Source: an uncultured bacterium (lineage in GTDB: Bacteria > Muiribacteriota > UBA6191). From it: a DNA stretch of 64,000 nucleotides. Where the stretch lies: NCBI GenBank assembly GCA_964539825.1, contig CAZIKF010000026.1, forward strand, positions 1,304 through 65,303, in the 5' to 3' direction. This document shows, one piece after another, positions 8,641-45,872 of the stretch (positions within the stretch are counted from its first letter, which is position 1; each line of letters opens with the position of its first letter). The position numbers were made by a program, and so were the translations under genes. The notes below the pieces were generated by a model that did not search any database, was not told the DNA's origin, and saw nothing but the letters and a program-made list of their open reading frames with translations.

Positions 8641-8792
8641 GTGATGCGAGAACCGGTGCTTAGGCACGGATTCGGGGGTCCAGGAGCAGCACCTGGAAGC
8701 GGTTCCCTCGTCGAAGGTAGCGATGCACCGTCACCTCTCATGCACTATTCCTGGACCCCCGAATCCGCACTACGCACCGGCTCTCGCATCAC
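8641..8792 (+). repeat. Palindromic GTGA...TCAC element, copy A (152 bp)
   Basis: Terminal IR gtgatgcgagaaccggtgc/gcaccggctctcgcatcac; inner 19-bp perfect IR cggattcgggggtccagga; core ccctcgtcgaag; 7 nt after the tRNA. Confidence 0.9.
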
Positions 8793-8857
8793 GTTCTATT
8801 CTTGAAGGACCATAATAGGCTAAAATTTAAGCTGTGATCTCTTACCTCTTGGATGAA

Positions 8858-10852
8858 ATGAGCTTTCGCTTTTCTTCCCGGGGCTTTGTTTTGCCTCTGA
8901 GTATAGTTATAGTTTTTTTAGCCCTCGGTCTTGGATGGGTTCTCTTTCGTGTGTCTCGTCAAAATCTCCACAACTCTTTGTTTTACGCCAATAAAGAGAG
9001 GGCTTATCACCTGGCTCGTGCCGCCGCTCAATTACTAGATATAAAGCTAGAAAAGGCAATTTCCTATTTAAATTCCTCAGATCCGAATACATTTCCCAAA
9101 AAAGTTAAATCTCCCGATGAGGTACGTGAGATTATTCAGTGGCTCCTTGATGAGCATGGATTTGTGCGTCAGGAGCCCTCAAAACTTCCTTTACCTGTAC
9201 CGGGGTGGGAGATCCTGACGGGAGAAAACTCTGGGTCGTCCGTGGACTCTTATCTTGAGCTAATAGCTCCTCAAGAATTGTTCCCCGCTAGCCTGGGGGC
9301 AATGCACATGGACCCCCGTGAAATCGAATTTTTCTTCATTTTGCGGGTTGAAGTGAAACTCAGGGGAGCCAGTGCTGCCATCCATCGCTTTTCTCGGGCT
9401 AAATATGTGCGAATTCTTCCGCATGTACTGGGGAAATTCGTCTTATTCGTCGATGAGCCGCCCCTTGAAGGTTATAACAAGATCCTTGAATCTCAGACCT
9501 TAGCCCAGCAGGTAAATTCACCCGTGGTCATATTTCCGGGGAAGTCTCTTCCTCCGCAGAGTTTTGGATTAGCCCCCGGGGAAGTGGTAAACCTGGTGGA
9601 TCAGGCAGGTTGGCTTTTTTTTCGCTCCCTTTCTGAAATGACCTTTGGAGTCGGCAAGGGTGGTGGCGTTGCTCGATATGAAGACAGTTTCTCTGAGTCT
9701 CAGATGAACCTGCGCAATATGGAGGAACTGGATGGAGTCCAAACCCTGCTCAGTGAGGATGGGTCTATGGATTACTTTGTCCGTAGAGTACCCCTATTCA
9801 AGGAACTTCAGCTTACTGAACAAAAAGAAGTCTTTGTTCATGAATCGACTTCAAAGATCCAGGGCGGTTCTATTTTTCGGCTTTTTGGTGCCCTGGATTC
9901 GCCTTCACCTTCCCTGGTTTTGGGTCCGGTGTCCAGAAGGATTGCTGTGATTCAGGGTCTTTTTCATAAACCCAACAACAAGTTCTCACCCCTTCCCTTC
10001 TTAAACTCTTCACAATATGAAGAACAAAGCTGGCCTGGAATCACCAATAAGGATGCGGTGGAGGTTTTGAAGATGCATTTTGAGGAAATCTCCACAACTC
10101 CGTATGAAGTCTATGCCAGGAGAATGTCTCAGCTAGTTGTTGAGGATTACAATTCAGCACTTCTTGATCTGTTAAGAGCCTCCCCTTCCCAGGTTAGCTC
10201 GGTTCCTCCCTCAAATTTACCCCTGTCTCAACGATTGAAAGCGGATGAACAGGGGGTTCGATTTGATCGTAGAATCCATTCTCAAAGACTGGATATACAA
10301 CGAGATGATGGCCTGAGTCTCTATGAGGGTGGCGATTTAACAGAATTTCGAGATATGAGTTTTTTCAAGAATCGAGTAGGCATTTCGGTACAGGATACTT
10401 CAGAATTTCTTCAGAAATTTGTGCAGGAAGGAGTACTGAATCTCGGGGGAGTGGTTCAGGTGCGTTCGAACCTTTTAATTAACGAACCGCTAGTACTCGC
10501 GCCGGGAGGTTCGGGGATGATTCTTTGTGAAGGGGACGTTGAGATTTCCGCAGCTATTGAATCATCAATGGAGCAGATTCTGGTCATTGTTTCCCTTAAT
10601 GGAATGATCAGTTTAAATGTTTCTGAACCATGCCGGTTTGCCTTGATAGCGATGAATGGACAGGTTCAGCTTCCGTCTAGATTTAGTTTGACAGGGATGG
10701 TAGCCGCGAAGGATGTAAAAGTGCTTCCCTCTGCCCCTGGGACTTTACGGGAAGTTCGCTACCACACCCTCCTGGACCCGACATCTTCCAATGGGTACCT
10801 AAGAGGCTTTCGTCTAACAACTGAGAATCTGTGGAGCCAATATGTACAATGA
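8858..10852 (+). CDS. PilX/GspK-like large minor-pilin protein
   Basis: Class III-like N-terminus SSRG|FVLPLSIVIVFLALGLGWVLF lacking Glu5; C-terminal beta-rich G-x-I-x-A repeats. ORF track starts at GTG 8834; ATG 8858 preferred. Confidence 0.65.
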   Translation: MSFRFSSRGFVLPLSIVIVFLALGLGWVLFRVSRQNLHNSLFYANKERAYHLARAAAQLLDIKLEKAISYLNSSDPNTFPKKVKSPDEVREIIQWLLDEHGFVRQEPSKLPLPVPGWEILTGENSGSSVDSYLELIAPQELFPASLGAMHMDPREIEFFFILRVEVKLRGASAAIHRFSRAKYVRILPHVLGKFVLFVDEPPLEGYNKILESQTLAQQVNSPVVIFPGKSLPPQSFGLAPGEVVNLVDQAGWLFFRSLSEMTFGVGKGGGVARYEDSFSESQMNLRNMEELDGVQTLLSEDGSMDYFVRRVPLFKELQLTEQKEVFVHESTSKIQGGSIFRLFGALDSPSPSLVLGPVSRRIAVIQGLFHKPNNKFSPLPFLNSSQYEEQSWPGITNKDAVEVLKMHFEEISTTPYEVYARRMSQLVVEDYNSALLDLLRASPSQVSSVPPSNLPLSQRLKADEQGVRFDRRIHSQRLDIQRDDGLSLYEGGDLTEFRDMSFFKNRVGISVQDTSEFLQKFVQEGVLNLGGVVQVRSNLLINEPLVLAPGGSGMILCEGDVEISAAIESSMEQILVIVSLNGMISLNVSEPCRFALIAMNGQVQLPSRFSLTGMVAAKDVKVLPSAPGTLREVRYHTLLDPTSSNGYLRGFRLTTENLWSQYVQ

Positions 10853-11435
10853 ATTTCGAAGACCTCTAATCCTTGGACTGCTCCTGGTTTCTAATCTTCT
10901 GCAAGCAGGGGAGCTGAGTGTGGTAGTGGGGAAGGAGGGCAACCTTATTGAGCAAAAACTTCAAGCGGAGAATTTAAATTCCTCGGCCCCTCTTCCAGGT
11001 GAGTGGCAGGATTCGGGTACTATTGCGTCTTCATGGACCGCTCCGCCACCAGCCTCATTTTCTCCTACCTCTGTCAATCCAACAATTACAGAGCAAATCG
11101 ACGCCCTGGGCGATCCCGGGACCCCGGTCTCAGCAGCGGTGAACGCAAGCCTTTTTTCAAACTTAGGAAGCTCTATAGCAACCAAGGAGCCCTACGGGAT
11201 CTACAGGCAATGCCAGCTACTTTGGAAGAAATATCACGGTACAACCCCATCAATGTGGGACATGAGAGGGTATACCTATTGGTCATTGGATAAAGGTCAT
11301 ACTATTGCTGAGGTGGAATTAGACATGCGCTGCAAGAAAGAAATTGGTGATGCAGCACCAAATCCGCCACCCTCAGTGGAATGCACTGGTTATGTTTCAC
11401 CCCCTGATTTAGGAGATGGTAAGACCAGAAATTAA
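10842..11435 (+). CDS. Secreted hypothetical protein, Pro/Ser-rich linker, possible DUF4214-like C-terminal module
   Basis: Signal peptide; overlaps upstream stop (operon); C-terminal LWKKYHGTTPSMWDMRGY. Confidence 0.6.
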   Translation: MYNEFRRPLILGLLLVSNLLQAGELSVVVGKEGNLIEQKLQAENLNSSAPLPGEWQDSGTIASSWTAPPPASFSPTSVNPTITEQIDALGDPGTPVSAAVNASLFSNLGSSIATKEPYGIYRQCQLLWKKYHGTTPSMWDMRGYTYWSLDKGHTIAEVELDMRCKKEIGDAAPNPPPSVECTGYVSPPDLGDGKTRN

Positions 11436-11436
11436 G

Positions 11437-11874
11437 ATGAAGAATCCAATTTTTCGTTCTTGCACCGGATTGACCCTTATAGAACTAATTTTTTCCCTGG
11501 CCCTGATTTCCTTTTGTGTTGCCCCAATCTATTTCTTGTTTTCTTCCAGCCACAAAATGAATATTTCCGCTCGTGAAAGACTGGAAGCGATGGCCTACGC
11601 CAATACCTATCTCAGCGCTATTCAGAGTCTGGATGTAGAGAGGCTTGTCTCTGTATCCAAACTTAGAGATGTAGAACTCTCTTCACCGTACTCACTCCAG
11701 GATCTACAAGTAAAACCCATACCAGAAAAAATGCATCGAAATTTAGAAATTAACACCTGGGATCCTGGAATTTCACAAGTGTTCTTTAAAGTAATTGTGG
11801 AGATTCAATGGAAGGCAGGCGCTACGGGAAGCGATCATAAATATCAGCTCAACGCACTAATTCCCAAACACTAG
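11437..11874 (+). CDS. Prepilin-type N-terminal cleavage/methylation protein (PilV-like minor pilin)
   Basis: G|LTLIELIFSLALISF with Glu at +5; ORF track start 11416, ATG 11437 preferred. Confidence 0.8.
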   Translation: MKNPIFRSCTGLTLIELIFSLALISFCVAPIYFLFSSSHKMNISARERLEAMAYANTYLSAIQSLDVERLVSVSKLRDVELSSPYSLQDLQVKPIPEKMHRNLEINTWDPGISQVFFKVIVEIQWKAGATGSDHKYQLNALIPKH

Positions 11875-11895
11875 GAGCCTGTAGGAGAATTGCCT

Positions 11896-12888
11896 TCACA
11901 GGGAGCCAAACTTGAGGTTACGCCATTTCCCAAGAAAATTTCGCTTTCCTCCGCAGCATGGATATCCCCCCGCCCAGACCCGGTTTGGTTTCCCGCTAAA
12001 CTTTTCTGTGCGGCCTATCTGGTTCCCATCGAGAAAAATTTTAACCTCGGAGCCTGTCCATTGAACCTTCCAGGTATGCCAGTCCGGTAAATTATCAGAG
12101 GCGATTTCCATTCTCATGGCTTTAGTACCGCCACCTTCCACTACATAGCGTATGGCTCTCCCGTTACCCCCCGCATGAAGAAGCAGGATTCTATGGAATC
12201 CTTCTCCTCGCAAAGTAAGAAAAATGTATTCCCAATCCCCATTTGGGGATGGGTCCGAGCGATGTCTAATGCCGCTGGTTTCCATACTCACCCAGCCTGC
12301 TGAGTGACCTGGAAGAGCGCTGTCCTTAGACTTTGACTGAGTCACGGAAGGATCTGAGCCATACTCTCCACTCGTAGAGCCTGCCTCCCCTCCCGAATTT
12401 CCTGTCCCCGGTGAAAAACCGCCAGAATTGGGAGTCCCAGGGCTAGTGCCTTGCTTAAATCCGGGGCTGGATTTCTTGAGATTCTCCAGCAACTCTTCAC
12501 GGCTGAGTAATCCCAGTCCGATTTTGGTGGAGTTGCGCAGACTCTCTCTTCTGCTAGGAGCTCTACCCATTGTGACCTGAAAAGCCCAGTTGACATATTC
12601 CTTTGGGTCTTGAGGTCCCTGCTGAGCTGATAAGTTCTCAACCGCTTCCTCACGGGACCCGAACCTGCTTTGATATTCCTCGGAATTAAGAACGTCTTGA
12701 ACCATCTGATCTCTTGTAAGCCAGCCGTCAGCAAGCGCCTTGCCGTAGGACTGCATACCAGAAGGATCTGGGTCTCTCTTTAGATAGGTTTGATAAACCT
12801 GCTTGATATATTCTTCATTGGAGTTCTCTTCAGCGGAATTTGAAGTGCCGCTTAATAAGATGAAGACAAGAATTGTAAGAATTCTCAT
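11896..12888 (-). CDS. Secreted protein with two DUF4214-like helical modules, Gly/Ser linker and ConA/LamG-like beta domain
   Basis: Signal peptide; VYQTYLKRDPDPSGMQSY and FQVTMGRAPS repeats; WHTWKVQWTGSEVKIFLDG lectin/glucanase-like motif. Confidence 0.6.
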   Translation of the reverse strand: MRILTILVFILLSGTSNSAEENSNEEYIKQVYQTYLKRDPDPSGMQSYGKALADGWLTRDQMVQDVLNSEEYQSRFGSREEAVENLSAQQGPQDPKEYVNWAFQVTMGRAPSRRESLRNSTKIGLGLLSREELLENLKKSSPGFKQGTSPGTPNSGGFSPGTGNSGGEAGSTSGEYGSDPSVTQSKSKDSALPGHSAGWVSMETSGIRHRSDPSPNGDWEYIFLTLRGEGFHRILLLHAGGNGRAIRYVVEGGGTKAMRMEIASDNLPDWHTWKVQWTGSEVKIFLDGNQIGRTEKFSGKPNRVWAGGYPCCGGKRNFLGKWRNLKFGSL

Positions 12889-13068
12889 AGGTTCCCTTTC
12901 CTTTTTAACCTATATCCAGAATATCCCCAAATGATAAGAATTAGAAGACTGATGTCCTGGCAAGTTCGACAGCAGTTAGGGAAATTCAGAGAAATGCAAC
13001 CAAATTGTCTTAAATTCCGTACAATGAATTAGGATAGGGAAAAAGACTTCCAATTAAGGATGTAAATC

Positions 13069-13752
13069 ATGAAAAATACTCTCAATATTCTTATGCTTCT
13101 GGTTCTCACCATCGTCAGCTTTGGAGGAGATAAGGCTCTCGCAATGCTGTCTTCTAATCAGGACGCGGACGGAAACTTTACACCTTTGACCAAGGATGAA
13201 GGGAAGTTCTTCTACAGGCCGGTCAATTCTAAGCTTACCAACCTCAAACATAAGATTCGCAAGATTAAAGGACGTAAATTCCAAATACTGATTACCGGGG
13301 AATTGGAAGCTGAAATCCGCAGTGGGACACCCTCTTCAGTGGCGATAGATTTCTACGACGCAAAAAACAATTATAGCCACACTGATAACGTAAAAGGCAC
13401 CCAGGTGACTTTACAGGTCAATATCAAGGAGCATGACACGGTCTCTGAAAATGATGTTGTTCTTACGGGATATCAGAAAGTAGCCCTGCCCTTTGTAAAA
13501 GGGGTCCAGCGAATGCTGAGCAAAAACACCATCTATAGAGGTAAATTCAAACTTCTCTATGAAGTCTCCTTTGCCAAGATTGAAGCACAGTTAGGAAAAT
13601 TTGACACCGCGAAACTCATGGTAGAAGTAGTGGTCCCTGAAAGAACCAGCGAGGAAAAGGAAAGCACGGAAGCGGAGCATGTCTTTACCGATTCAGATGG
13701 CTACAAAGATGGGAAAGAGAACAATAAGTTTTTCAAGGGTCTCGAGGAGTGA
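13069..13752 (+). CDS. Secreted hypothetical protein
   Basis: 227-aa ORF with signal peptide (ALA|M) and AAGGA RBS; stop codon lies inside repeat copy B. Confidence 0.7.
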   Translation: MKNTLNILMLLVLTIVSFGGDKALAMLSSNQDADGNFTPLTKDEGKFFYRPVNSKLTNLKHKIRKIKGRKFQILITGELEAEIRSGTPSSVAIDFYDAKNNYSHTDNVKGTQVTLQVNIKEHDTVSENDVVLTGYQKVALPFVKGVQRMLSKNTIYRGKFKLLYEVSFAKIEAQLGKFDTAKLMVEVVVPERTSEEKESTEAEHVFTDSDGYKDGKENNKFFKGLEE

Positions 13753-13913
13753 GCTGAAAACCGAGGCTTAGCTAGATGCTTGAATGCCCAGAGTCGGCAC
13801 CTGAGCGTAGATCACTCCTAGAACGATGCGATGCATCGCCCGTCGTCGCGGTCTACCCCCATGCACCCATTCTGGGCATTCAATCACCCATCACACCCCG
13901 GCTCTCAGCTCAC
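13749..13913 (+). repeat. Palindromic GTGA...TCAC element, copy B (165 bp)
   Basis: IR gtgagctgaaaaccgagg/ccccggctctcagctcac; inner IR ttgaatgcccaga/tctgggcattcaa; core gcgatgcatcgc shared with copy E. Confidence 0.9.
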
Positions 13914-14044
13914 GGAGTAATTTTTTTTTGGTTTTTCTTGTTCACCCCCTGGTAATGCCTGCTGGTAAGATGGGCTGGATAAGTGTGGTTTCCCTTCCTG
14001 GGTTCTTACTTTTCCGTGTGTGATTTTCTCCCGTTTTATTTTAG

Positions 14045-15040
14045 GTGGTGGTAGATATTTCTGAGAAGAAAACTCAGTCCCGAGGAATTTTTGGGATCAT
14101 TGTTAAGGTTGGGGTCGTTTGTACTTTTGGGATTGTCCTTTTTTTCTATTTTTATCCGGGGGGAGAGGACCTAAAGTCCGAGGTTCTTGAGCTGATAGAA
14201 AGTGAACTTCCTGCCCTGAGTCAACTTGGGATTCCCGATTTACTAAAAAGCGAAACGGAGGAATCTCAGGAGACCGTTCATGTTCAAGGCCCAGAGGACA
14301 TGGTTCCCTTAATGAATACGCTGGCCGAGAAATATATGGAACAGAACAAAGAGATCAAAATTGAAGTCTCAGAAGCTGGCTCAGATTCTGGAATTAGTTC
14401 TGTTTTAGAGGGAAGTGCTGACCTGAGTATGAGCAATAGATCACCTGATAAAGAAGAGTCTCAGCTAGCTGAAGAGAAAGGAATTACCCTGGATCGAACC
14501 GCGCTGAGCCTTGATGCCATAGCCTTCATCGTTCATCCAGCAAATCCCGTGGATTCTCTAACCTTGAAACAGGTGAGTGAGATCTACCAGGGGCGTTACT
14601 CCAGTTGGAAGCAATTGGGAGGGAAAAACTGGCCTATTTCCATTTTAGGCAGAAGGCTGAATACTGGAACCCACAAGATTTTTCAATCCTGGGTTTTGAA
14701 TAATCAAGAGATTTCACAGAAGATGAGCCAACTTCCCACCCTGGCTTCTGTTTTGCGGGCAGCGTCACAAACCCATGGAGCGATTGGTTACGGCAGCCTG
14801 GGCTCCATTAAGAACTCTGGCCTGGACATAAAAATTCTAAGAGTGAAAGCCCCTTCTGGTTCCCACATGGTTCTACCTGATGAAGACTCGATACTCGCGG
14901 GCGATTATCCAGCCAGTCAAAAGCTTTATTTTTACTACAGTGACAAGAAGAAGAACCAAATTTCAGAATTCCTTAAGTATTCCCAGAGCGCTGAAGGGAA
15001 AAAAGCTATCAAAGAGGCAGGATTTGTTCCTGTGAAGTGA
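14045..15040 (+). CDS. PstS-family periplasmic binding protein with N-terminal TM anchor
   Basis: DAIAFIVHPANPV, IYQGRYSSWKQLGG, GAIGY, YPASQKLYFY motifs of the PstS/PBP_like_2 family. Confidence 0.8.
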   Translation: MVVDISEKKTQSRGIFGIIVKVGVVCTFGIVLFFYFYPGGEDLKSEVLELIESELPALSQLGIPDLLKSETEESQETVHVQGPEDMVPLMNTLAEKYMEQNKEIKIEVSEAGSDSGISSVLEGSADLSMSNRSPDKEESQLAEEKGITLDRTALSLDAIAFIVHPANPVDSLTLKQVSEIYQGRYSSWKQLGGKNWPISILGRRLNTGTHKIFQSWVLNNQEISQKMSQLPTLASVLRAASQTHGAIGYGSLGSIKNSGLDIKILRVKAPSGSHMVLPDEDSILAGDYPASQKLYFYYSDKKKNQISEFLKYSQSAEGKKAIKEAGFVPVK

Positions 15041-15044
15041 CTTT

Positions 15045-15208
15045 GTGATGTGAGAACCGGTGCTTAGGTGTGGAGCAGGGCAGCAATAAGCGGCACCTGT
15101 CGGCGTTTCCCTCGTCGAAGTTAGCGATGCTAGCTCCTCCTCACGAACCACCAACATGCACCACTTCTTCCTACCCTGCCCCACACCACGCACCGGCTCT
15201 CACATCAC
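15045..15208 (+). repeat. Palindromic GTGA...TCAC element, copy C (164 bp)
   Basis: IR gtgatgtgagaaccggtgc/gcaccggctctcacatcac; inner IR gtgtggagcagggcag/ctaccctgccccacac; core gcgtttccctcgtcgaag. Confidence 0.9.
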
Positions 15209-15241
15209 TTTTTATTGGGAGATGTTTTAATTATCCTTCCA

Positions 15242-15524
15242 GCATTTCAAGTTAGTCTGATTCGGGTTTATGATGTATGGCGGAGTGTTCAGGGATGTTA
15301 GCTGATTGTGATTCGAGAGGAGAAGGTGGCATCGTCACCTCGGCTTCTCGCTGAAAAAGTCAGAAAAGAAAATGTTCATCCCCGCATTTCAAGTGAGTCT
15401 GATTCGGGTTTATGATGTATGGCGGAGTGTTCAGGGATGTTAGCTGAATGTGATTCGTGAGGAGAAGGTGGCATAGTCACCTGGTTTTTCGATTAGCAAG
15501 TCAGAGAAGTAAACTCTCATCCCC
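15242..15524 (-). repeat. Two tandem 142/141-bp units, each a half-copy of the GTGA element
   Basis: Units start gcatttcaagt at 15242, 15384 and 15525; all share ggcggagtgttcaggg...gtgattcg.gagga.aaggtggcat.gtcacct. Confidence 0.9.
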
Positions 15525-15533
15525 GCATTTCAA

Positions 15534-15696
15534 GTGAGTCTAATTCCTGTGTAGGGTCCCAGGCGGAGTGTTCAGGGTTGTTAGTTGGTAGTGATTCGAG
15601 AGGAAAAGGTGGCATAGTCACCTTTGACGAGGGAAACGCTGCCAAATGACAGTCCAGGGCGCTCTGACAGGGGCCCTACACAGGAATTAGGCTCAC
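15534..15696 (-). repeat. Palindromic GTGA...TCAC element, copy D (163 bp), inverted relative to A, B, C, E
   Basis: 27-bp IR gtgagtctaattcctgtgtagggtccc/ggggccctacacaggaattaggctcac; core ctttgacgagggaaacgc is the reverse complement of the A/C-type core; IR extends 8 bp further (catttcaa/ttgaaatg). Confidence 0.88.
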
Positions 15697-17126
15697 TTGA
15701 AATGTAGCTTCACTAGCTGATCTTTGAAACTGGCGTAGTCTTTTTCAACTTGTTCCATCATTTGCATAGCTAGTTTGCGTTCAACTTCAGTTTGTTGAGC
15801 GTCTTTGGTAAATTTTTCCAGAACTCGATTCAGCTTCTTATAGCCACGGCGATAGTTGATATCTCCGCTTGCCAGTACAGCAATATCTTTATCAAAAATT
15901 TCAAGGAGACCCACGATATAATGGTCTTCCGCAACCAATTCCTTTGCCAGTGATCTGCTCAGGAAAAGGGCCAGTTTTGGGTGTTGGTTACAGAGTTTTT
16001 CCAAATCCCGAATTGGGATCTTATAGAGCCGAACGGGTGAGATTGTTTTCAGTTCAAGGAGGTGATAACCCTTGAATTCTCCAGTGGGATTACACAGTGG
16101 TTCAAGGTGGTGCAGCATTTGCCCGGGAACCGAATACATCTTTGCCCATGTATCTTCATCAGGAACTACCACTTTTCCCTTACGCAAAATGAAGAAATTC
16201 TCCTGTTTTCTACCCGCTAGCGCCAGATAGGTGTTGATATTGACGGGGGTCTCCATCTCAGCGGGTAGGATCTGTTCCTTGAGTTCAAGAATATCATTCT
16301 TACGATCAAGATCGGGTTTACGAAACCTGAGATTGTCGGAGAGAGCGGGGATATTCTTAAACTCATTGATAATCTTGGTAAGCCAGACACTTTGCTGTGA
16401 TTCATTCTTAGCCATCAGGGAGGTACGCATCTTTTCAAAAGCCGCCTGATAGAGATTGACTTTTTTTAGAAAGCCCCCATGCAAAACTTCAATTCCCTCG
16501 GCGGTTTTTCTCGATTTTCTCAGCCTGTTCGCGAGCATGGAAATCAGGGCCAGAGCCAGCTTGGGACTATGCATCATGGAATGTTTGAAGGCCTGCTCGC
16601 TCGTTGCGATTTCAGTCACTTCAACCTCGGTACTGCACTTGATTGAAGCGGTCCGAATCCCATCAAGAAGGGCTCCCATTTCACCGATTTTCACGTTTGC
16701 TTTGCGAATTTGGGCTACAATCTTTCCATTTTCACTGACGTAACGCTTAGCCTTCTCGCGATCTTCTGACGGGGGATGATCAGCCGTGACGATGATCTGT
16801 ACAATTCCCCGCTTAAGAATGTAGATGCTGGTAGAGGGCTCTCCCTGTAAGAAAAGATAGTCGCCTGGCTTTAAGACTCTTTTGGGAATGGCGTCTGAGG
16901 AACCCGAATCATCAGTATTTACCTTGGAGTCGATGATTTCGATTTCAAGGTAGTCCAGGGAAAGGATGTTATTGATGATTTCGGTGGTGAGATAAATTCC
17001 GGCATTGTAGACGGTATTTTGTCGATCTACATCGAGAATTTCCTGGTCAAGAATTTTTCCTGGTTCAACATTTTCAATTGGAGTCAATTTCCCCATAATT
17101 CCAGCGCTCGGTAGTCTCTTTGCCAA
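15693..17126 (-). CDS. Cyclic-nucleotide-binding domain protein (two cNMP domains, no HTH)
   Basis: LFLQGEPSTSIYILKRGIV and IGEMGALLDGIRTAS phosphate-binding cassette; second degenerate copy FFILRKGKV; N-terminal domain resembles that preceding HD-GYP domains. Confidence 0.8.
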   Translation of the reverse strand: MAKRLPSAGIMGKLTPIENVEPGKILDQEILDVDRQNTVYNAGIYLTTEIINNILSLDYLEIEIIDSKVNTDDSGSSDAIPKRVLKPGDYLFLQGEPSTSIYILKRGIVQIIVTADHPPSEDREKAKRYVSENGKIVAQIRKANVKIGEMGALLDGIRTASIKCSTEVEVTEIATSEQAFKHSMMHSPKLALALISMLANRLRKSRKTAEGIEVLHGGFLKKVNLYQAAFEKMRTSLMAKNESQQSVWLTKIINEFKNIPALSDNLRFRKPDLDRKNDILELKEQILPAEMETPVNINTYLALAGRKQENFFILRKGKVVVPDEDTWAKMYSVPGQMLHHLEPLCNPTGEFKGYHLLELKTISPVRLYKIPIRDLEKLCNQHPKLALFLSRSLAKELVAEDHYIVGLLEIFDKDIAVLASGDINYRRGYKKLNRVLEKFTKDAQQTEVERKLAMQMMEQVEKDYASFKDQLVKLHFK

Positions 17127-33100: not shown

Positions 33101-34107
33101 TTCTTTTGATTGCGGGAACGGTCCTACTGCTTACCTCTCTTGGGGATAGACGATGGCTATGGGAAGGGCTGGGATCTTTGATTCTAATCTCCATACCGTT
33201 GTATCTCATCTCAGGAGATACTGGAGACGCCCTGCTTAGCCTGGGATGTCTTTCAGGCTTCTTTTTCATGCATGCTCGAGTAAAAGGGTGGGGAAACCTG
33301 GTTTATCTCTCGGCCGCTCTGTTCGCAATGGACTATTTCTTTCTAAAACACCTGGGATTCATTCAACCCTCCGGTTATTCCTCGCTTGTTCTCCTGGGGT
33401 TGGCCCTGGGACTTGAGTATCTTTCAAGAAGGCTTCCAGAGTCCTTTGATGTTTACCGGCATCCTTTTGAAATTCTGGCCAGAATTCTCCCTCTTATCAG
33501 TGTTTTTAAGGAATTCAGCGAGTCTTCAAACCCGTGGATATTTCTTGCAGCGGGCCTTGTTTATGAGTTTCTTCAGGATACCAGCACTCTTTCTTATTCC
33601 CGCCTTCTAGGCCTGGCCTGCTATAACCTGGCTCTATATACCCTGGCTGGAAACCATGATCTCTTTTTGGAGTTGATAACCGCCTCCATGGGCTTTTCAA
33701 TTCTATGGTATGCCCGTTGTATTGAAAGCAAAGTTGATAAATCCCGGCTTCAGGGCTTGAAGGTAGTCGGGAACTTTCTATTCTACTCAGGAGCTCTTTA
33801 TGAGCTTGTCTTTCGTACACAATCCGAACATCTCTTCTTCTTGTGGGGTCTTTGTATCCTGGGAGGCTGGCTGGCTATCTATCTTCAAGCAAGGTTGCAG
33901 CTTTTTTCCACCCTTCTGGTGTTTTTCTTTTCGGTAATCTTTTTCGTGATTCGACAGGTTCTGCTACAGGTCTCAACGGGAATCCTTGGAATCGCGATTC
34001 TGGGTGCCATACTCCTTGTCATAGGCGTGATTCTTGAAAAAAATAAACAGGTTCTACTGTCTTGGATTCAAAAATGGAAGGCACGCTTCCGAACTTGGAA
34101 AGATTGA
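30193..34107 (+). CDS. Very large polytopic membrane protein (DUF2157-like)
   Basis: Soluble Pro-rich N-terminus, then NWFLFLGAFLLFGAGI and roughly 1150 aa of TM helices. Confidence 0.75.
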   Translation: MKIHLFNGLKRVHELRERCLRNGGQYKGIDLETLHQLEKILLDQLPRISASGSTDKEREEIGQLLQENLSAYGHQPPVFSHILEVLYPEPGSRIPPAQTPPAEAILPHSGVPIPPVSSPRLKEEAQKEPDKSSGVLEKVWETFRDELSVNWFLFLGAFLLFGAGIFYTLFWWQQFQSLEQFMLTLCGLLLVASMEWGLRKGMNLIQSPRIFAGILCFSFPMVLSVHLALDPLYFFITLGGSLFLLEPLRRHYAPDFKRLLPAYLLLCLLFPLTSLVTYKFQSLLLIGSGSLFIWLIFLLQKGVQRLPWTLFLSLSWTLFCAYLPVLDPVSSGGILYLFILARVLFPRLENSAHLSFIYGAYGLNLAVCLVAGSHALLYASSLFLVYAIHRANRFDTHPLRSLLGLGLGSILWFLLPSFLELLSIQPSIQQRLFVLPFLIWFQIFWCRRWGVEGISQILVFTWFLLLGVFDYQEGLRVHCAIFAAGLFLVRQKDRRPLIDLEIGLILARGCFRELSPGFAFETLTGIFLCLACLPFARNRSWNPMSRLALVLCFLGSMKAFWHFISIGPSIDWLFWFSAFPGRQIVLPEHLVLKLVIFTITSFLLIVLERRYLAQFLHFFVLETTALIILQWLRPEFGFEFGFLFAQVFILIWMHPCWIRKFSGIRPGESTLVDSIQSYLVLLVFVGSLPGLLLSSVYALPSLLLAKAYHRAQIFYASLGLFLLSLLGLREDLVLSSSLSKISTLPAMFNHPESILASFRSGGIPLWICCVISALFLLGASKNTWTRFLVKTPFWLPGDLRIPAIGFACLALPFWLFHLSSPGLNVAILSLMMLLGLIGAFMLILDLELAGLLLIPVWLGFLWHGPLDGDGRLVEVVISLLLFLILSSRFFATDSSWKLLSLAGFLSLFVVTTEAIVNFVQQNLQIQWILALLVLGAYLYSLRIRAVWGTGLIMLCGILINTIQFSYWGPFLLIAGTVLLLTSLGDRRWLWEGLGSLILISIPLYLISGDTGDALLSLGCLSGFFFMHARVKGWGNLVYLSAALFAMDYFFLKHLGFIQPSGYSSLVLLGLALGLEYLSRRLPESFDVYRHPFEILARILPLISVFKEFSESSNPWIFLAAGLVYEFLQDTSTLSYSRLLGLACYNLALYTLAGNHDLFLELITASMGFSILWYARCIESKVDKSRLQGLKVVGNFLFYSGALYELVFRTQSEHLFFLWGLCILGGWLAIYLQARLQLFSTLLVFFFSVIFFVIRQVLLQVSTGILGIAILGAILLVIGVILEKNKQVLLSWIQKWKARFRTWKD

Positions 34108-39019: not shown

Positions 39020-39040
39020 AGAAAAAATCCGTTCTAGGTG

Positions 39041-39069
39041 TTTACAAAAAATCCTTATTTCCCTATAGT
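39041..39069 (+). promoter_or_regulatory. Sigma70-type promoter
   Basis: TTTACA-17 nt-TATAGT. Confidence 0.7.
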
Positions 39070-39207
39070 TTTGTATGTTAGTAGGCCGAAACTTTCAATG
39101 AGCTCTTGTCATTTCTCAAAAAATTCTTACAAAAGTATACCTTCATTGATTTGTTGTTAATGAAGAAAGTATTTTAACTAAGAATTAAGAAAATTCAGGA
39201 AGACACG

Positions 39208-39513: not shown

Positions 39514-39632
39514 ATTTTACCTAAGTTGAAAGGTCAAGCCTTAGATTTCTCACGAAGACCATCCTTCTTGAATCATACTCATGAGATATTCGTTTTACCG
39601 AATAGTCCATGAATAGAGTGATGGAGTGAATT

Positions 39633-40319: not shown

Positions 40320-40336
40320 TACCTTCGGACTGGTTC

Positions 40337-40345
40337 TGTTATAAT
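40337..40345 (+). promoter_or_regulatory. Extended -10 promoter upstream of gap
   Basis: TGnTATAAT about 60 nt before the gap ATG. Confidence 0.6.
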
Positions 40346-40404
40346 CCGCCCGCTAAGTTTATCTAAGGGAAATGTGTAAAATTTTTGAGGCAAAGAGGTG
40401 AGCC

Positions 40405-41406: not shown

Positions 41407-41525
41407 GAAGTCAAAACTGATGGAGGGAGCGGGAGTGTTTTTTAAGCTTGGTATGGTACTTGGGGCCTTTGTAATGATGGTCTTGATGATTATGATATTT
41501 GGAATTCTTGAAACGAACCGGGAAT

Positions 41526-42122
41526 TCAAGGACGGTGAATAGTCGTAGACCGGTAACCAGTGTCTTTCAAAAAGAGCTTGTATTCAGGGAGGACATAATG
41601 GTGGTACTTTCGAAACCACCCCAGGCGTAGTTGATCTCGCAGCCGCCTTGAGGCCACTCGCCAGTATTTCCCTGGATTGACCTGCTCGAGTACAAAGTTT
41701 TCACTGTAGAGGTCCTCCAGGTCTGAGGGTCGCAGCAAATACTTGCGCTCCCACCAGTCCAAGAAGAGTAGGATTTCCTGATCACTCATTCTCATCAGAA
41801 TTCTCAGATCACTTTCACTTTGCTCAACCAGGTGATTGCGTATTCTCTTGAAGGCAAAATAAAAGGGGTCGAATCCTTCCTTGGAACTTTGTTTGCGTAG
41901 TTCCAGCTGCTGTAGAAATAGTGGTAGATTTTCATTAGAATGGGTCCTGGTTTGCACATCAATGCTGACCTTGAGAAGAAGCAGCAGGATCAAGTACGCC
42001 CATCGCGGGAAGAGCACGGTAGTAGGCAAAGTTAAGAAGGGACTCACGTCCCTTGTATCGAATGAAAGCATCTTCGGATTTAGAGCACTGGGTAGTTTTC
42101 TTTCAGTCAGTGGCTCCACCAC
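41526..42122 (-). CDS. Hypothetical protein with one TM or signal segment
   Basis: 198-aa ORF filling the gap between gap and thiN; start uncertain. Confidence 0.55.
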   Translation of the reverse strand: MVEPLTERKLPSALNPKMLSFDTRDVSPFLTLPTTVLFPRWAYLILLLLLKVSIDVQTRTHSNENLPLFLQQLELRKQSSKEGFDPFYFAFKRIRNHLVEQSESDLRILMRMSDQEILLFLDWWERKYLLRPSDLEDLYSENFVLEQVNPGKYWRVASRRLRDQLRLGWFRKYHHYVLPEYKLFLKDTGYRSTTIHRP

Positions 42123-42151
42123 TTACAAAGTATAGACCATCAAGCCCTCAT

Positions 42152-42703
42152 ATGAGGGTGTTGGCGGTGGATGGTGGTCTGAGGTGGGCAAGAGAATGGG
42201 GTTATGAAGTAGACATGTACCTTGGTGATGGGGACAGCTATAATGGCGATCTGCCGGTGGACCATCAGGTGTTCCCCAGGGAAAAGGACTATCTCGATGG
42301 TGAGGCAGCTCTCCAGTTTCTACTGGAACATGAGGTTTCAAGAATTGATCTTATCAATTTCTTCCAGGGGCGTTGGGATATGAGTTTCACACATTTCCAA
42401 GCCTTATCTCGATTCAGGAATCTTGCGAATAGAGTTCATATTTATACGGATCATAGCGAAATTCTGTTTCGAGATTCAAAAATTGAAATTTATGGAAAGC
42501 CTGGACAGAAATTTTCCCTGGTTCCCCTGGAACCCATGAACGGCGTAACTCTTAAGGGAGCCCGCTATGAGCTTGATTGTCAGGATGTTCGACCCGGTCG
42601 GGGTCTGACTATCTCCAATGAATATGCAACGGAATCAATTTCTCTAAAGTTCAAAGATAATCCCCTGTACTTACTTGAAATCTATGGATTGGAATTCCTA
42701 TGA
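42152..42703 (+). CDS. thiN: Thiamine diphosphokinase
   Basis: AVDGG, GDGDS, EKDYLDGEAAL, GRxD, LKGARY, ISNE; ATG 42152 preferred over 42053. Confidence 0.85.
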   Translation: MRVLAVDGGLRWAREWGYEVDMYLGDGDSYNGDLPVDHQVFPREKDYLDGEAALQFLLEHEVSRIDLINFFQGRWDMSFTHFQALSRFRNLANRVHIYTDHSEILFRDSKIEIYGKPGQKFSLVPLEPMNGVTLKGARYELDCQDVRPGRGLTISNEYATESISLKFKDNPLYLLEIYGLEFL

Positions 42704-45700
42704 AACCCTTCAGAAGTATCACCAACAAGATTAAGTCCTATCCGAAATTATTGGTTTTATGCTGGATACTAATTCCCCTTCTAACCGTGGATATCTTTTA
42801 TACCGGGAAGTGGGTTCCCATTCGAATACGCAAGACCTTTGTGGGTTTGGAAAAGCAGTGGCATGATTTCCTGATTCGACAACAATCCAATGAATTGATC
42901 GATAGGAAAAGAAAGCTGGATCAGGACATTAAGAAGAATGTCTACCAGAAGAATTCCCAAACCTTTCAAAAAGCCTTTGATAGTCTGGTTGTAAGGACCA
43001 GGACGCATAAGGACATCGCTATTGTTGCGGTGGATGAAAAGACTCTGACAAAACTGGGTGAATGGCCAGTGCGAAGACACCATTATGCTCACCTGCTAGA
43101 TAGAATCCTCATCGATGGAAAAGCTCGGGGAGTAGTCTTTGATATCATGTTTTCCGAGCAGGGAGATAGGCTTCCGATTCAGAAGCTAACCCAGCTCAAA
43201 GATCGGGTTGTACCTAGTCTCAAGCCGGTCATAGATCAGGCAATTCAAGAAATTGATTATGATCGATTTCTTGAGGCAACCATGAACAAGCACCGCTATA
43301 GGATCGTTGCCGGATACACCACCCTTCAGGAAGAGGAATCCAAAGTAAAGGACTATTCCAAGGTCTATTTTCCTGAGGTTCTGAGGAAATATCCCACGGA
43401 ACATCTCAACACAACAATCCTGAAAACTATTCCGGAAGTTAAGGGCGGAGTTTATAACTACCCAGGAATTCTGGACAACATCCTCTACCGAGGTTTCTTT
43501 TCTGTTCCCACTGATGAGCTGGATGGCCTGGTGCGTGATGTTGATCTTCTAACCCAGTATCCTATGAAGTTCCGGCACTCAGGAGGTGAACTTAGTGAGG
43601 AGACGAAAGAGCTGTTCGGATCCCTTGATTTGGAGACTTACGCAATGCTTACAGGAACTTTTAATCCTCCAGAGGAAGCAGGTCCCTATTTGGTATTGAA
43701 GGGACACGCTCGCAAGTTACTCAACAAGCCCACCAGAGAAAAAATCAAATCCATGGTTAGGGAGGCGATTTCAAGAGTATCGGATTTAAGCACCTTTCAA
43801 AGAGATCTCTTAGAGCGAATCATTGAAAAGTCCGACCTGATGAAAGAGGACGTTTATCGTGGTCTTACCCTGTTCTCGATTCAATATACCCTCGGCCTGC
43901 TTAACTGGAGTGAAAATCCCGATGAAGGCTTTTTACTGAACCTGGTAGTGAAAGAACCTGAATTGAAAGAAGAAATTCTGGCGGATCTATCGGATGATAC
44001 GCGTAGAAAGATACTCAGGGTAAGGAAAGGAGAGGAGTTTAAGGCATATCTGGAGCCCCTGAAGTCGGCCCATCGAAATCTAGAGTCCAATTTAATTCGT
44101 CTTCTCCTTAAGCAGATTCTGGCTCCTCTTGAGCAGGAAATGGTACTGCTTCATTCCTTTCCTGAAGAGGAGTGTCAGAGAGTCCTGCGCTTGATAAGAG
44201 ATAATCTTGGCCTGGGAAAGCAATTTCTAACGGATGTCTTCAAAGTCGAAAATCTTGATGAAGTCTATCCAGAAATTAAGATGTCCAGAAAGGGGAGGGT
44301 GGGCATCAACTATTACGGGTTAGCCAATTCTTATCCCGTTTATAGCTTCACCGATGTCATCTCAGAGCCCAGGTTAAGTCCCAAATACCTGGGTTATGAA
44401 CTTCCTGCTATTTCCCTCAGGGAAGCCCTGGAAAATAGAGTTGTCTACATTGGGCCTACCGCTGTGGGAATCAGTGACTGGAGAAATACACCGATCTATA
44501 AGCAGCTAGATGGAGTGGAATTACACGCCCATGCCCTGGGAAACCTGAGAACAGCGAAGCAAATTCTAAGGGGACCTGACAATCGTGTTCTAGAGGGTTT
44601 GTTCATCGTGGCTCTGGGAATTATTCTCCCTTTGATTCTCATTTCCCTCAATGCGGTTCTTGGAGCGGTTGTAGTCCTTGCTATCGTGGTTGGTTATTTC
44701 TTCTTCTGTTCCAGTACCTTCATGAATTCACAAAATTATTTCTATTTCATCCCGCCCTTTCTACAGAGCCTGGGTACCTATATCCTGCAGACAAGTTATT
44801 CCTATATCAAGGAGCAAAAGGAAAGGCGTAAGACCCGCAACGCCTTTCAGCACTACGTAAACGCGAGTGTTGTGGATGCCGTGCTCAGGGACCCGGATAT
44901 GCTCAAACTGGGAGGACAACGGCGGGAACTTTCGGTTCTATTTTCCGATGTTCGCGGATTTACGACGATTTCTGAAGGTCTTGCTCCCGAAACACTCGTA
45001 GCCCTGATGAATGAGTATCTAACTGAAATGACAGATTTGGTCCTGAAATATAATGGAACCTTAGATAAGTTTATCGGTGATGCCGTAATGGCGTTTTGGG
45101 GGGCTCCCATTGGCCAGGAAGATCATGTCTATCGGGCGGTGATGACCGCTATTGAGATGAATCAGAGAGTCGCTCAAATGCACGCTGATTTTATGCAGAA
45201 TTACGGTGTGGAAGTAAAAATCGGAATAGGAGTCAATACCGGTCCAGCAGTAGTGGGAAACATGGGCTCAAAGAGTCGCTTTGACTACACAATTCTGGGA
45301 GACACGGTCAATCTCGGGGCTCGCCTTGAGGGGCAAACCAAGAACTATGGCGTGGAGCTCATCGTTTCGGAATCAACTCATTCCCATATAAAAGATTGGG
45401 CCGCTACACGGTTTTTGGATTTAATTGCTGTGAAAGGTAAGACTGAGCCCGTAAGAATTTATGAATGTCCTGGGGTCAAGAAGGAGATGGACTCTAAAAT
45501 TCTGGAGGGCATGGCCAAGTTTGAAGAAGCTGTGGATATTCATTATTTTGGCAGAAATTTCGCCGAAGGAATTCCAGTATTTGAAAAACTCAAGGAATAC
45601 TGGGGAGGCGAAAATTTGGCATGTGATCTTTATATAGAGAGGCTTAGCGATTTCGTGGAGAATCCACCTGAGGAAGCCTGGAACGGAGTATTTGTAGCTA

Positions 45701-45711
45701 CTTCAAAGTGA
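42700..45711 (+). CDS. CHASE2-domain class III adenylate cyclase
   Basis: IAIVAVDEKTL..LGEWP, DGLVR, GVELHAHAL; three TMs; LFSDVRGFT, DKFIGDAVMAFWGAP, GDTVNLGARLE. Confidence 0.92.
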   Translation: MKPFRSITNKIKSYPKLLVLCWILIPLLTVDIFYTGKWVPIRIRKTFVGLEKQWHDFLIRQQSNELIDRKRKLDQDIKKNVYQKNSQTFQKAFDSLVVRTRTHKDIAIVAVDEKTLTKLGEWPVRRHHYAHLLDRILIDGKARGVVFDIMFSEQGDRLPIQKLTQLKDRVVPSLKPVIDQAIQEIDYDRFLEATMNKHRYRIVAGYTTLQEEESKVKDYSKVYFPEVLRKYPTEHLNTTILKTIPEVKGGVYNYPGILDNILYRGFFSVPTDELDGLVRDVDLLTQYPMKFRHSGGELSEETKELFGSLDLETYAMLTGTFNPPEEAGPYLVLKGHARKLLNKPTREKIKSMVREAISRVSDLSTFQRDLLERIIEKSDLMKEDVYRGLTLFSIQYTLGLLNWSENPDEGFLLNLVVKEPELKEEILADLSDDTRRKILRVRKGEEFKAYLEPLKSAHRNLESNLIRLLLKQILAPLEQEMVLLHSFPEEECQRVLRLIRDNLGLGKQFLTDVFKVENLDEVYPEIKMSRKGRVGINYYGLANSYPVYSFTDVISEPRLSPKYLGYELPAISLREALENRVVYIGPTAVGISDWRNTPIYKQLDGVELHAHALGNLRTAKQILRGPDNRVLEGLFIVALGIILPLILISLNAVLGAVVVLAIVVGYFFFCSSTFMNSQNYFYFIPPFLQSLGTYILQTSYSYIKEQKERRKTRNAFQHYVNASVVDAVLRDPDMLKLGGQRRELSVLFSDVRGFTTISEGLAPETLVALMNEYLTEMTDLVLKYNGTLDKFIGDAVMAFWGAPIGQEDHVYRAVMTAIEMNQRVAQMHADFMQNYGVEVKIGIGVNTGPAVVGNMGSKSRFDYTILGDTVNLGARLEGQTKNYGVELIVSESTHSHIKDWAATRFLDLIAVKGKTEPVRIYECPGVKKEMDSKILEGMAKFEEAVDIHYFGRNFAEGIPVFEKLKEYWGGENLACDLYIERLSDFVENPPEEAWNGVFVATSK

Positions 45712-45872
45712 TGCGAGAACCGGAACTTAGGTAGAAGCCTGGACTCCCAGAACCGGCACCTGAGAGCAGATCACTTCTAGAACGATGCGATGCATCGCCC
45801 GTCGTCGCGTTCTACTCCCATGCACCCATTCTGAGAGCCCAATCATCCACCACGTCCCGGCCCTCGCATCAC
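45708..45872 (+). repeat. Palindromic GTGA...TCAC element, copy E (165 bp)
   Basis: IR gtgatgcgagaaccggaac/gtcccggccctcgcatcac; core nearly identical to copy B; overlaps the cyclase TGA. Confidence 0.9.

Follow-up and report, generated by a model that had tools for sequence, protein, structure and literature searches.

Why do unrelated genes in the genome of an uncultivated bacterial lineage end at copies of the same long palindrome? The repeat occurs five times in the 64,000 nt of DNA analysed here (the window), and a first-pass annotation had read it as a possibly undescribed family of mobile or recombination hairpins, placed in the orientation of the gene that precedes each copy. We examined its structure, its strand, its position relative to stop codons and its presence at orthologous sites, and weighed mobile elements, integron sites, terminators and small-RNA genes as explanations.

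Copies of the repeat and their place in databases

The element is a 152-166-bp interspersed palindromic repeat that is non-coding, non-autonomous and uncatalogued. The features of the window are listed below; for the copies the strand is the best-folding one, and bit scores are those of a covariance model (CM).

8550..8634, plus strand: tRNA-Ser(CGA), with copy A beyond its 3' end
8635..15692, no strand: 7.06-kb island with the inverted copies A and D at its edges and copies B and C and a tandem array within
8641..8792, minus strand: copy A, 152 nt (116.5 bits minus vs 68.8 plus); its GTGA end faces tRNA-Ser, 6 nt past the tRNA 3' end; left island boundary
13749..13913, minus strand: copy B, 165 nt (150 bits minus vs 55.8 plus); TGA 13750-13752 in the terminal GTGA is the stop codon of a 227-aa ORF (13069-13752); a run of T follows the other end
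15045..15208, minus strand: copy C, 164 nt (162.2 bits minus vs 70 plus), starting 4 nt past the stop of a PstS-like ORF (14045-15040) and followed by TTTTTATT
15200..15623, no strand: tandem array of three 141-142-nt units, each made of about 50 nt of flank and the distal half of a D-type element; half copies at 15251-15340 and 15393-15482 on the minus strand
15534..15696, plus strand: copy D, 163 nt, inverted relative to A, B, C and E (123 bits plus vs 53.7 minus); TGA 15695-15693 (minus strand) is the stop codon of a cNMP-binding gene, 15693-17126(-); the palindrome runs 8 nt into each flank (15526-15704); right island boundary
45708..45872, minus strand: copy E, 165 nt, RNA fold -112 kcal/mol (z -13.3) minus vs -61.7 kcal/mol (z -5.4) plus; TGA 45709-45711 is the stop codon of a CHASE2 adenylate cyclase (42700-45711), and a convergent Wzy_C gene ends 95 nt beyond the copy

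The five copies align over their full length with a mean column identity of 70%, and a CM search of the whole window with filters off returned exactly these five and no other full copy, so that the number and coordinates given by the first-pass annotation stand. The CTTAG motif, the second stem and the GCACCTG, CGATGC and CATGCAC blocks that it described are found in A, B, C and E, while copy D is a divergent subtype. It had missed the two half copies in the 141-nt array (the flank plus half-element architecture is also present at locus L016, 7-272), the stop codon inside the element, and the better folding of the opposite strand. At least 14 more copies lie elsewhere in the same species and one copy was found in a related species. 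Although identity between copies is only 47-84%, they share a conserved non-palindromic core of about 45 nt within the 152-166-nt unit, which indicates homology among more than 20 unlinked loci, and the motif GTGANNNGARAACCGRNNCTTAG occurs 6 times vs 0.11 expected. The element ends read GTGAKSCGAGAACCG... and ...CGGCTCTCGSMTCAC. Among 19 aligned copies the terminal tag reads GTGA in 17, TTGA in one and GGGA in one; GTAG or CGTC is found in none, in agreement with the earlier statement that the ends are neither of REP type nor attC-like.

No Rfam family reached its gathering score for the element, only tRNA being above threshold; at a permissive E-value the sub-threshold matches were plant miRNA-precursor models, which are generic long hairpins (55 bits, where the gathering score is 168). 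The element was not found in plasmids or phages by BLASTN, and a scan of viral contigs gave 0 matches to its pattern. The same pattern produced 6 single matches, all in unrelated MAGs, among 185,579 reference genomes; this is below chance expectation, and the family is therefore considered absent from these genomes. HIP1 (GCGATCGC) has 0 occurrences, so that the host is not a typical cyanobacterium. The database results bear out the proposal of an uncatalogued hairpin family. A small-ORF or SECIS reading was also considered and rejected, because the indels between copies are not multiples of 3 and covariation tracks base pairs rather than codons.

Pairing, strand and position relative to genes

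Each copy forms one long imperfect hairpin of about 65 pairs, with three helices and, at its apex, a small hairpin that is conserved; the arms pair over their full length, and the terminal stem, i.e. the terminal inverted repeats, measures 17-19 bp in all copies. By reading of the sequence, an arm-internal hairpin GTGC-TTAG-GCAC is present in copy A only and is not conserved. On the strand used by the first-pass annotation the hairpin z-scores are -9.4 (A), -8.3 (C) and -3.1 (E). When 19 full copies were aligned, compensatory double changes were found at 35 of 43 pairs on the gene-sense strand, the observed values being matched by 0 of 500 shuffles, and at 48 of 65 pairs on the other strand. 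Pairing has thus been kept by compensatory substitutions despite the divergence of the copies, and the structure is maintained in the copy from the related species.

Selection acts on the strand complementary to the one that encodes the adjacent gene. In the antisense alignment the 65 pairs comprise 952 Watson-Crick, 195 G·U and 12 A·C cells, with pairing at 92.9% compared to 78.1% for the same pairs on the gene-sense strand, and G·U makes up about 16% of the pair cells on the well-folding strand. Structure prediction on the gene-sense strand gives more A·C than G·T (53 vs 10). The alifold consensus energy is -106 kcal/mol antisense vs -41 kcal/mol gene-sense, and the antisense CM score exceeds the sense score in every copy by about 50-105 bits, mostly about 90. 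Parameters for ssDNA give the same strand preference (-44.5 vs -27.3 kcal/mol). Orientation tracks the gene, not replication, as four loci carry oppositely oriented copies within a few kb. The earlier statement that the copies lie in the orientation of the gene has to be reversed: their functional orientation is antisense to the neighbouring gene.

Placement relative to genes was analysed in 21 copies, 17 of which overlap a stop codon or lie at most 4 nt away, in keeping with the extragenic 3'-end placement, between co-directional or convergent genes, by which REP elements are characterized. In 10-11 copies the gene stops at the TGA within the terminal GTGA, only about 5% of other genes having a GTGA stop; one ORF stops at the internal CTTAG, and in 5 cases the stop is 0-4 nt upstream. 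One further copy follows a tRNA and three are reversed and located just upstream of a gene start, where they sit in 5' UTRs in the folding orientation. The association with gene 3' ends reported for the window holds in the same way, four of the five copies being on or at most 4 nt from a stop codon and copy A being 6 nt past a tRNA. Orthologous cyclases end in ...VATSK* and cNMP proteins in ...LHFK* regardless of whether the element is there; it leaves the native C-terminus as it was. The sequence after the distal end is T-rich (about 48% T in 12 nt, with clear runs in about 11 of 19 copies) and the basal stem is G+C-rich; at about 75 bp the stem is well above the typical length of an intrinsic terminator. 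Scans for sigma-70 promoters and simple terminators found nothing associated with the elements, and next to them there is no conserved promoter and no motif at a fixed distance. Co-directional gene pairs have no evident regular source of antisense transcripts, which speaks against the reading favoured below.

Orthologous sites and mobility

The element is gained or lost between species. At the E site it is present in the 86% relative and absent from the 80% relative, and the spacer in the 74% relative is 11 nt long; in the 80% relative the element is also missing from the A and D sites. The entire island (8635..15692) is absent from a related species, where 48 nt separate the tRNA-Ser 3' end from the stop of the cNMP gene. 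The same site can carry different subtypes in two species. The PstS-like gene could not be used for this comparison because no relatives of its protein fall between 33% and 95% identity. Within the species, loci L007-L011 and L037-L043 are more than 99.4% identical and include no empty sites, and across more than 10 metagenomes every copy is fixed, at >99.4% identity; an apparent 155-bp insertion at L008 proved to be an N-run scaffold gap.

No near-identical copies were found (maximum 84%), and all copies are old. Mobility is therefore inferred from differences between species only, given this maximum identity and the fixation within the species: the earlier designation as mobile elements is supported by presence and absence at orthologous sites, but recent or ongoing movement is not. 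The flanks of 19 copies show no consistent target-site duplication, only sporadic 2-3-nt matches in a T-rich context. About 285 kb of sequence from this and related genomes, only a small part of the genome, was searched with a crude regex; it yielded no credible HUH, tyrosine-recombinase or IS110 motif, so that the enzyme supposed by the first-pass annotation to be encoded elsewhere did not turn up there; the ORFs between inverted copies code for secreted proteins or a YHYH protein. IS200/IS605-type insertion follows a lagging-strand rule. The orientation observed here, which is tied to genes and not to GC skew, does not fit such a rule, and a G·U share of 16% would be more usual in an RNA hairpin than in one of ssDNA; both points count against the reading favoured below.

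Known repeats, explanations and significance

In REP/REPIN-BIME systems, associated with RAYT (Y1 HUH) transposases, extragenic palindromic repeats carry a 5' tetranucleotide tag as they do here (PMC3733652). GTAG REPs are located <20 bp away from the 3' ends of ORFs, and their tag "often provides the stop codon", so that GTAG supplies TAG where GTGA supplies TGA in this family (PMC3733652). Inverted pairs forming long hairpins, tandem mosaic arrays, lack of target duplication and lineage-specific occurrence are further shared properties (PMC3733652). The differences are in the tag, which is GTAG (GYAG, GTRG, GTGG) or CGTC in REPs, and in the architecture: a REP is a 20-40-bp self-complementary unit and a REPIN consists of two inverted REPs, whereas the arms here are not REP palindromes and the unit is 152-166 nt with its conserved non-palindromic core; there are no identical master copies, and no RAYT was found in the approximately 285 kb searched by crude regex. 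The pneumococcal BOX and SPRITE, as described in parts of PMC3049150, are likewise folded, transcribed small interspersed repeats; BOX supplies 36 genes with their stop codon and truncates none of them, and SPRITE, which resembles a terminator, is enriched where convergent genes have their 3' ends. They differ by lack of sequence similarity, by host lineage and by the modular structure of BOX (boxA/B/C), and those parts of the source report no preference for folding of the antisense strand. With the REP and BOX precedents for repeats on stop codons, the behaviour seen here is not unprecedented.

The MITEs Correia (NEMIS), ERIC and bcr1 resemble the family in size (100-170 bp), terminal inverted repeats, long RNA hairpins and insertion beside genes, and they have orientation-dependent effects on mRNA. 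Correia duplicates TA and bcr1 TTTAT at the target; in contrast, such duplications are missing here, and the cognate autonomous IS is absent from the sequence examined. A supposed sharing of GTGA...TCAC termini with ERIC was dropped, the sequence in question being the central repeat of ERIC. Integron attC sites are also located directly 3' of an ORF, with a folded and functional bottom strand and a structure conserved beyond the sequence. They differ from the present elements in their R'' (RYYYAAC) and R' (GTTRRRY) core sites, which are absent here, and in their IntI and cassette-array context, which is lacking in the sequence examined, and the element here is independent of the gene. We concluded that this is a new family of a known kind, since it shares the behaviour of REP, BOX and MITE repeats known from other bacteria, and that its strand asymmetry is unusual. 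There was no match to Rfam, plasmids or phages, placement is strongly non-random, and orthologous sites differ in the presence of the element; none of the findings that the first-pass annotation had listed as contrary to its proposal was thus made.

Three other explanations have to be weighed. If the elements were attC-like sites, a gene and its downstream hairpin would form a cassette whose folded bottom strand is recombined by an integron-type tyrosine recombinase encoded elsewhere. The hairpin directly 3' of an ORF, the better folding of the bottom strand, the conserved structure with variable sequence, and two consecutive gene plus element units (the 227-aa ORF with B, the PstS-like ORF with C) in an island missing from a relative are in line with this. 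The cyclase and cNMP genes, however, are syntenic in relatives that lack the element, which therefore moves independently of the gene, and the existence of the same core genes with and without it contradicts the cassette reading and with it the recombination variant of the earlier proposal. Together with the absent RYYYAAC/GTTRRRY boundaries, the copy after a tRNA and the three before gene starts, the 131 nt from B to the next ORF (not cassette-like) and the lack of a tyrosine-recombinase motif in the ~285 kb searched by crude regex, this makes such sites extremely improbable; the reading is largely refuted by the orthologous-site comparison. Ordinary vertically inherited terminators, alike by common descent or gene conversion and never mobile, would account for the gene 3' ends, the T-rich tract past the hairpin in about half of the copies, the fixation of all copies within the species and the lack of recent ones. 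We regard them as very unlikely, as the hairpin of ~75 bp far exceeds terminator size, the core is homologous at unlinked loci, the same sites are empty in relatives or hold different subtypes in two species, the selected strand is not the mRNA strand, and some copies are upstream of genes.

Small-RNA genes are the third explanation: rod-shaped structured RNAs of ~165 nt, antisense (convergent) to the neighbouring gene and only secondarily dispersed, would have a cellular role of their own, for example as cis-antisense regulators or protein-binding RNAs. The covariation is RNA-like, with 16% G·U and with G·U, A·U and G·C exchanging at the same columns; the antisense fold of copy E has -112 kcal/mol (z -13), sequence is conserved in the apical hairpin and the internal loops, the structure is retained in the related species, and three copies sit in 5' UTRs in folding orientation. 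We nevertheless consider such genes unlikely: conservation ends exactly at the hairpin base, no promoter-like motif occurs at a fixed distance or in the sigma-70 scan, no U tract follows the antisense hairpin, ssDNA parameters show the same strand preference, and no Rfam family matches. A related alternative, that the antisense strand is the real product, either as a new class of RNA or as an RNA- or ssDNA-borne mobile element, seems rather more doubtful still. As RNAs, these products of ~165 nt would lie tail-to-tail with protein genes, their 3' end abutting the stop codon; as mobile elements, they would insert by an as yet undescribed mechanism that is coupled to the 3' ends of genes, be it a stop codon or the end of a tRNA, and might also bracket and carry several kb, as in the island between A and D.

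The elements are a new REPIN/MITE-like family that probably serves as 3'-end modules, and it may well be that they spread in the past as single strands and that the surviving copies persist as such modules. Under this REPIN/MITE-like reading, spread would have proceeded via a single-stranded intermediate of the well-folding strand, possibly ssDNA handled by a HUH/Y1 enzyme of the RAYT/TIRYT type or, less likely, RNA; the mobilizing enzyme would be encoded elsewhere or lost. Near genes, copies would have survived almost only in the orientation that gives the mRNA a weaker, A·C-interrupted hairpin at the stop codon, where hairpin and T tract may serve as a terminator or 3'-end stabilizer. In the opposite transcript the near-perfect hairpin may stop antisense or convergent transcription or expose the transcript to RNase III.

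The work adds a well-defined family and its covariance model, from an uncultivated host lineage, to the few bacterial interspersed repeats with strong covariation support. In practice, such elements confuse the calling of gene 3' ends and break metagenome assemblies. That the element takes the exact position of the native stop codon and leaves the protein unchanged bears on how REP-like elements reach stop codons, and the strand asymmetry, which marks the selected strand, bears on whether REP-like repeats act as DNA or as RNA.

Copies of the element in the window and elsewhere

The five full copies (A to E) of the hairpin element of about 160 nt described in the first-pass annotation were confirmed in the window by alignment and by a covariance model, together with two half copies in a tandem array that it had overlooked.

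Element copies and related features (window coordinates)
8641-8792: copy A, after tRNA-Ser; subtype with C and, more distantly, D
13749-13913: copy B, 227-aa ORF; subtype with E
15045-15208: copy C, PstS-like ORF; subtype with A
15534-15696, inverted: copy D, cNMP-binding gene; more distant member of the A/C subtype
45708-45872: copy E, adenylate cyclase; subtype with B
15200-15623: tandem array of three 141-142-nt units, each unit being flank plus distal half of the element
15251-15340 and 15393-15482: two D-subtype half copies within the array
8635-15692: 7.06-kb island starting with A and ending with inverted D, containing B, C, the array and six ORFs

The full-length alignment of copies A to E has a mean column identity of 70%, and a covariance model with which every window position was scored finds exactly these five as full copies. 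The 5' motif of the element occurs six times in the window versus 0.11 expected; an inverted-repeat scan of the window gave no further hairpin comparable to A-E, and 11 kb more DNA flanking the window is without an additional copy. Tandem duplication of flank plus half element was seen at three independent loci, window 15200-15623, L016:7-272 and L026:6650-6690 (L handles denote other metagenomic stretches; suffixes a to c, separate copies on one stretch), always at the distal (T-rich) side of the element. These recurrent half-copy duplications are reminiscent of BIME arrays.

The window is contained in a 131-kb metagenomic contig (ENA ERZ4231642 NODE_29), and near-identical DNA (over 99.4%) is present in at least 10 other assemblies, with every element present in every one. 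A seeming 155-bp length difference in the C-D intergenic region of one assembly (L008:2005-2104) was rejected as an insertion, being a run of N (scaffold gap) with duplicated edges. In a set of one genome per GTDB species the 5' motif gave nothing beyond chance matches, in viral contigs it gave none, and BLASTN of the element against plasmids and phages gave no match. In JGI metagenomes the same motif retrieved 25 stretches, the majority from samples Ga0257122/3, which also hold the window's own species (L042). Beyond the window, nhmmer and the covariance model confirmed 14 distinct full copies, along with several partial copies and a divergent one (L026:6746-6906). Pairwise identity among 21 copies has a mean of 61% and a maximum of 84%; since the copies are at most 84% alike and are fixed across strains, there has been no recent amplification. 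No Rfam family is matched by the elements at gathering score, which is reached solely by tRNA-Ser (8550-8634). At a permissive threshold they match plant miRNA-precursor models only, far below threshold, and such matches signify a long hairpin and nothing more.

A Pfam or NCBIfam scan covered 10 of 19 open frames, and the closest named homologues (GAPDH, at most 70% identity; DUF255 protein, at most 45%) come from MAGs of several phyla. A 1304-aa ORF at 30193-34107, conserved in relatives at 1302-1332 aa with orthologues that have no recorded Pfam match, sits in a stretch of unusually negative AT skew (-0.24 to -0.32).

Hairpin structure and strand asymmetry

In an alignment of 19 full copies (A2, 170 columns), RNAalifold gave 43 pairs on the strand used in the first-pass annotation, 35 of them with compensatory double changes. 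Counted on the named structure in A2, paired cells amount to 89.7% versus 71.6% in shuffles and double-change cells to 150 versus 48.5; paired cells collapse to 30-40% when partners are slid by 1-3 columns. The basal stem (GTGAKSCGAGAACCGRNN / NNYCGGCTCTCGSMTCAC) is followed by a small internal loop with CTTAG, a hypervariable middle stem and a third stem, and the conserved apex of about 45 nt has its own small hairpin. The inner stems differ entirely in sequence between copies and keep their pairing in each. Since pairing is kept despite diverged stems, the element is a single long hairpin with its pairing under selection.

On the gene-sense strand (the coding strand of the adjacent gene), the non-Watson-Crick cells comprise 53 A·C/C·A and 10 G·T/T·G. 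An A·C cell reads as G·U on the complementary strand. The folded reverse complements have 65 pairs, of which 48 show double changes, and the consensus energy is -106 kcal/mol for antisense versus -41 for gene-sense. The antisense structure is 92.9% paired (952 Watson-Crick, 195 G·U, 12 A·C and 76 other cells); reading its pairs on the gene-sense strand lowers this to 78.1%. Of the 65 pair columns, 42 contain G·U and 12 contain A·C, each copy has 7-14 G·U and 0-3 A·C, and covariance model R1 scores the antisense strand higher by roughly 50-105 bits in every copy. Copy E, which had seemed half decayed on first reading, is a near-perfect rod on the antisense strand (as RNA, -112 kcal/mol, z -13.3, versus -61.7, z -5.4, for gene-sense; as DNA, -44.5 versus -27.3). 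The known mutational asymmetries consist of C-to-T changes on two strands, the non-transcribed one and the leading one (in the window the plus strand, as judged by GC skew). Both biases would give a pattern opposite to that seen, which together with the antisense covariation means that the strand under selection is the complement of the adjacent coding strand. RNA is favoured by the high G·U content, with single-stranded DNA as a less favoured possibility.

Placement at gene ends and orthologous sites

Placement was tallied for 21 copies, one of them from a related species.

Placement of element copies relative to genes
Stop of upstream long ORF is TGA (once TAA) inside the terminal tetranucleotide (mostly GTGA): B, D, E, L026a, L014, L016, L029b, L031, L033b, L044, probably L012 (n = 10-11)
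ORF enters the element by 23 nt, stop is TAG of the conserved CTTAG: L034 (n = 1)
Stop 0-4 nt upstream of the element: C, L033a, L018, L030, L026b (n = 5)
Element 6 nt after a tRNA: A (n = 1)
Reverse orientation, just upstream of a gene start: L020, L029a, L026c (n = 3)

The proposed location at gene 3' ends in the gene's orientation thus holds for most copies; it needs amending in that the well-folding, selected strand is the antisense one and three copies lie reversed at gene starts. TGA is the stop in 50% of 86 long ORFs of the window's species, and GTGA stops are found in only about 5% of genes without the element. As the L034 frame ends at the TAG of CTTAG, the element offers stops in two frames, TGA (positions 2-4) and TAG (positions 21-23). 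The open frame entering that copy (L034:3831-3994; window's species, JGI Ga0257122_1000025) has 776 codons. The reversed copies (L020:1693-1857, L029:693-856, L026:6746-6906) would place the strongly folding strand in the 5' UTR. The L020 copy reads TCAC-AGGAGATAGTC-ATG, directly ahead of a Shine-Dalgarno sequence and start codon; L026c lies 22 nt before the lipoyl synthase start. At four loci, copies within a few kb of one another have opposite orientations, each in accord with its own gene, so orientation follows the gene and not replication direction. Read on the gene's strand, T accounts for about 48% of the 12 nt past the distal end, and about 11 of 19 copies show clear T runs there; no consistent target-site duplication was found at the flanks of copies.

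Local gene order is kept in relatives with 86, 80 and 74% GAPDH identity, and comparison of orthologous loci, as the annotation had proposed, revealed sites without the element (80% relative at E, A and D; 74% relative at E). At the E site, the cyclase C-terminus is ...VATSK* in all three readable DNAs (window AAG TGA, 86% relative AAA TAA, 80% relative AAG TAG). The 86% relative has an element of a different subtype there (nearest copy L026a at 64%; antisense -67.7 versus -41 kcal/mol), whose TAA stop pairs with TTA at the far end. No element is present in the 80% relative, and for the 74% relative the gene table gives 11 nt between the cyclase and the convergent Wzy gene, which leaves no room for one. 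The cNMP protein likewise ends in ...LHFK* (AAA TAA in the 80% relative, AAG TGA in the window). The element occupies the exact native stop position, and since the same genes occur with and without it at the E, A and D sites, its gain or loss is independent of the gene. The cNMP gene of the 80% relative stops 48 nt from the convergent tRNA-Ser 3' end, with no element in between; in the window the two ends are 7,058 bp apart (8635-15692). Four of the five window copies belong to this lineage-specific island, of which the six ORFs have no mobility functions and include a pilin-like N_methyl protein, a DUF4214 protein and a PstS-like protein. Copies A and D bracket the island with GTGA ends outward, like a composite element. 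A large polysaccharide/O-antigen-type cluster (Wzy, flippase, many glycosyl- and methyltransferases, dTDP-sugar enzymes) at window 46-63 kb and on L051 varies in gene content among related species; for example, the 80% relative is without Wzy.

Classification and possible mode of action

The closest published behaviour is that of REPs and pneumococcal BOX/SPRITE. REPs are mostly found within less than 20 bp of an ORF 3' end, where neighbouring genes are co-directional or convergent, and their GTAG tag frequently supplies the stop codon; they also carry degenerate tags such as GTRG or GTGG, form dimers with tags outside and arrays, and are associated with RAYT or long-TIR 'TIRYT' transposases (Di Nocera et al., PMC3733652). 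According to Croucher et al. (PMC3049150), 36 genes take their stop codon from BOX with no evidence of truncation, and SPRITE is a terminator-like repeat enriched at 3' ends. The element shares these behaviours but differs from REPs in two of their defining features, its tag and arms that are not self-palindromic, and from classical MITEs in the absence of target duplication. It is thus a new family within the known kind of interspersed palindromic repeats, and the interpretation given in the first-pass annotation is supported in part. An attC-type cassette reading was rejected, because the element lacks the core sites and is present in some and absent in other instances of the same genes. A crude regex search over 285 kb gave no HUH/Y1, tyrosine-recombinase or IS110-type motifs, and the suggested enzyme would be encoded elsewhere or lost. 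The ORFs flanked by inverted copies code for secreted proteins, a YHYH protein and a porin-like protein.

The observations directly establish a structure-constrained, strand-asymmetric hairpin that sits on stop codons, has T-rich DNA next to its distal end, has been gained and lost among species, and tends to be tandemly duplicated as flank plus half element. Such a family may have spread in the past via a single-stranded intermediate of the well-folding strand, the enzyme being encoded elsewhere or lost. Beside genes, the sole surviving orientation would be that giving a weaker, A·C-interrupted hairpin in the mRNA at the stop codon, where hairpin plus T tract could terminate transcription or stabilise the 3' end; antisense transcription may be blocked by the near-perfect hairpin on that strand or become subject to RNase III. 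We consider this scenario, taken as one whole, evenly balanced between right and wrong. Its main rival, that the antisense RNA itself is a functional small RNA, would account for the RNA-like G·U pattern, but a conserved promoter or terminator is absent: the distal flank has no conserved promoter-like motif and the antisense strand no U tract after the hairpin, and we regard a small RNA as unlikely. The family has two unusual and testable properties: its antisense strand is the one under selection, and it sits precisely on the stop codon.
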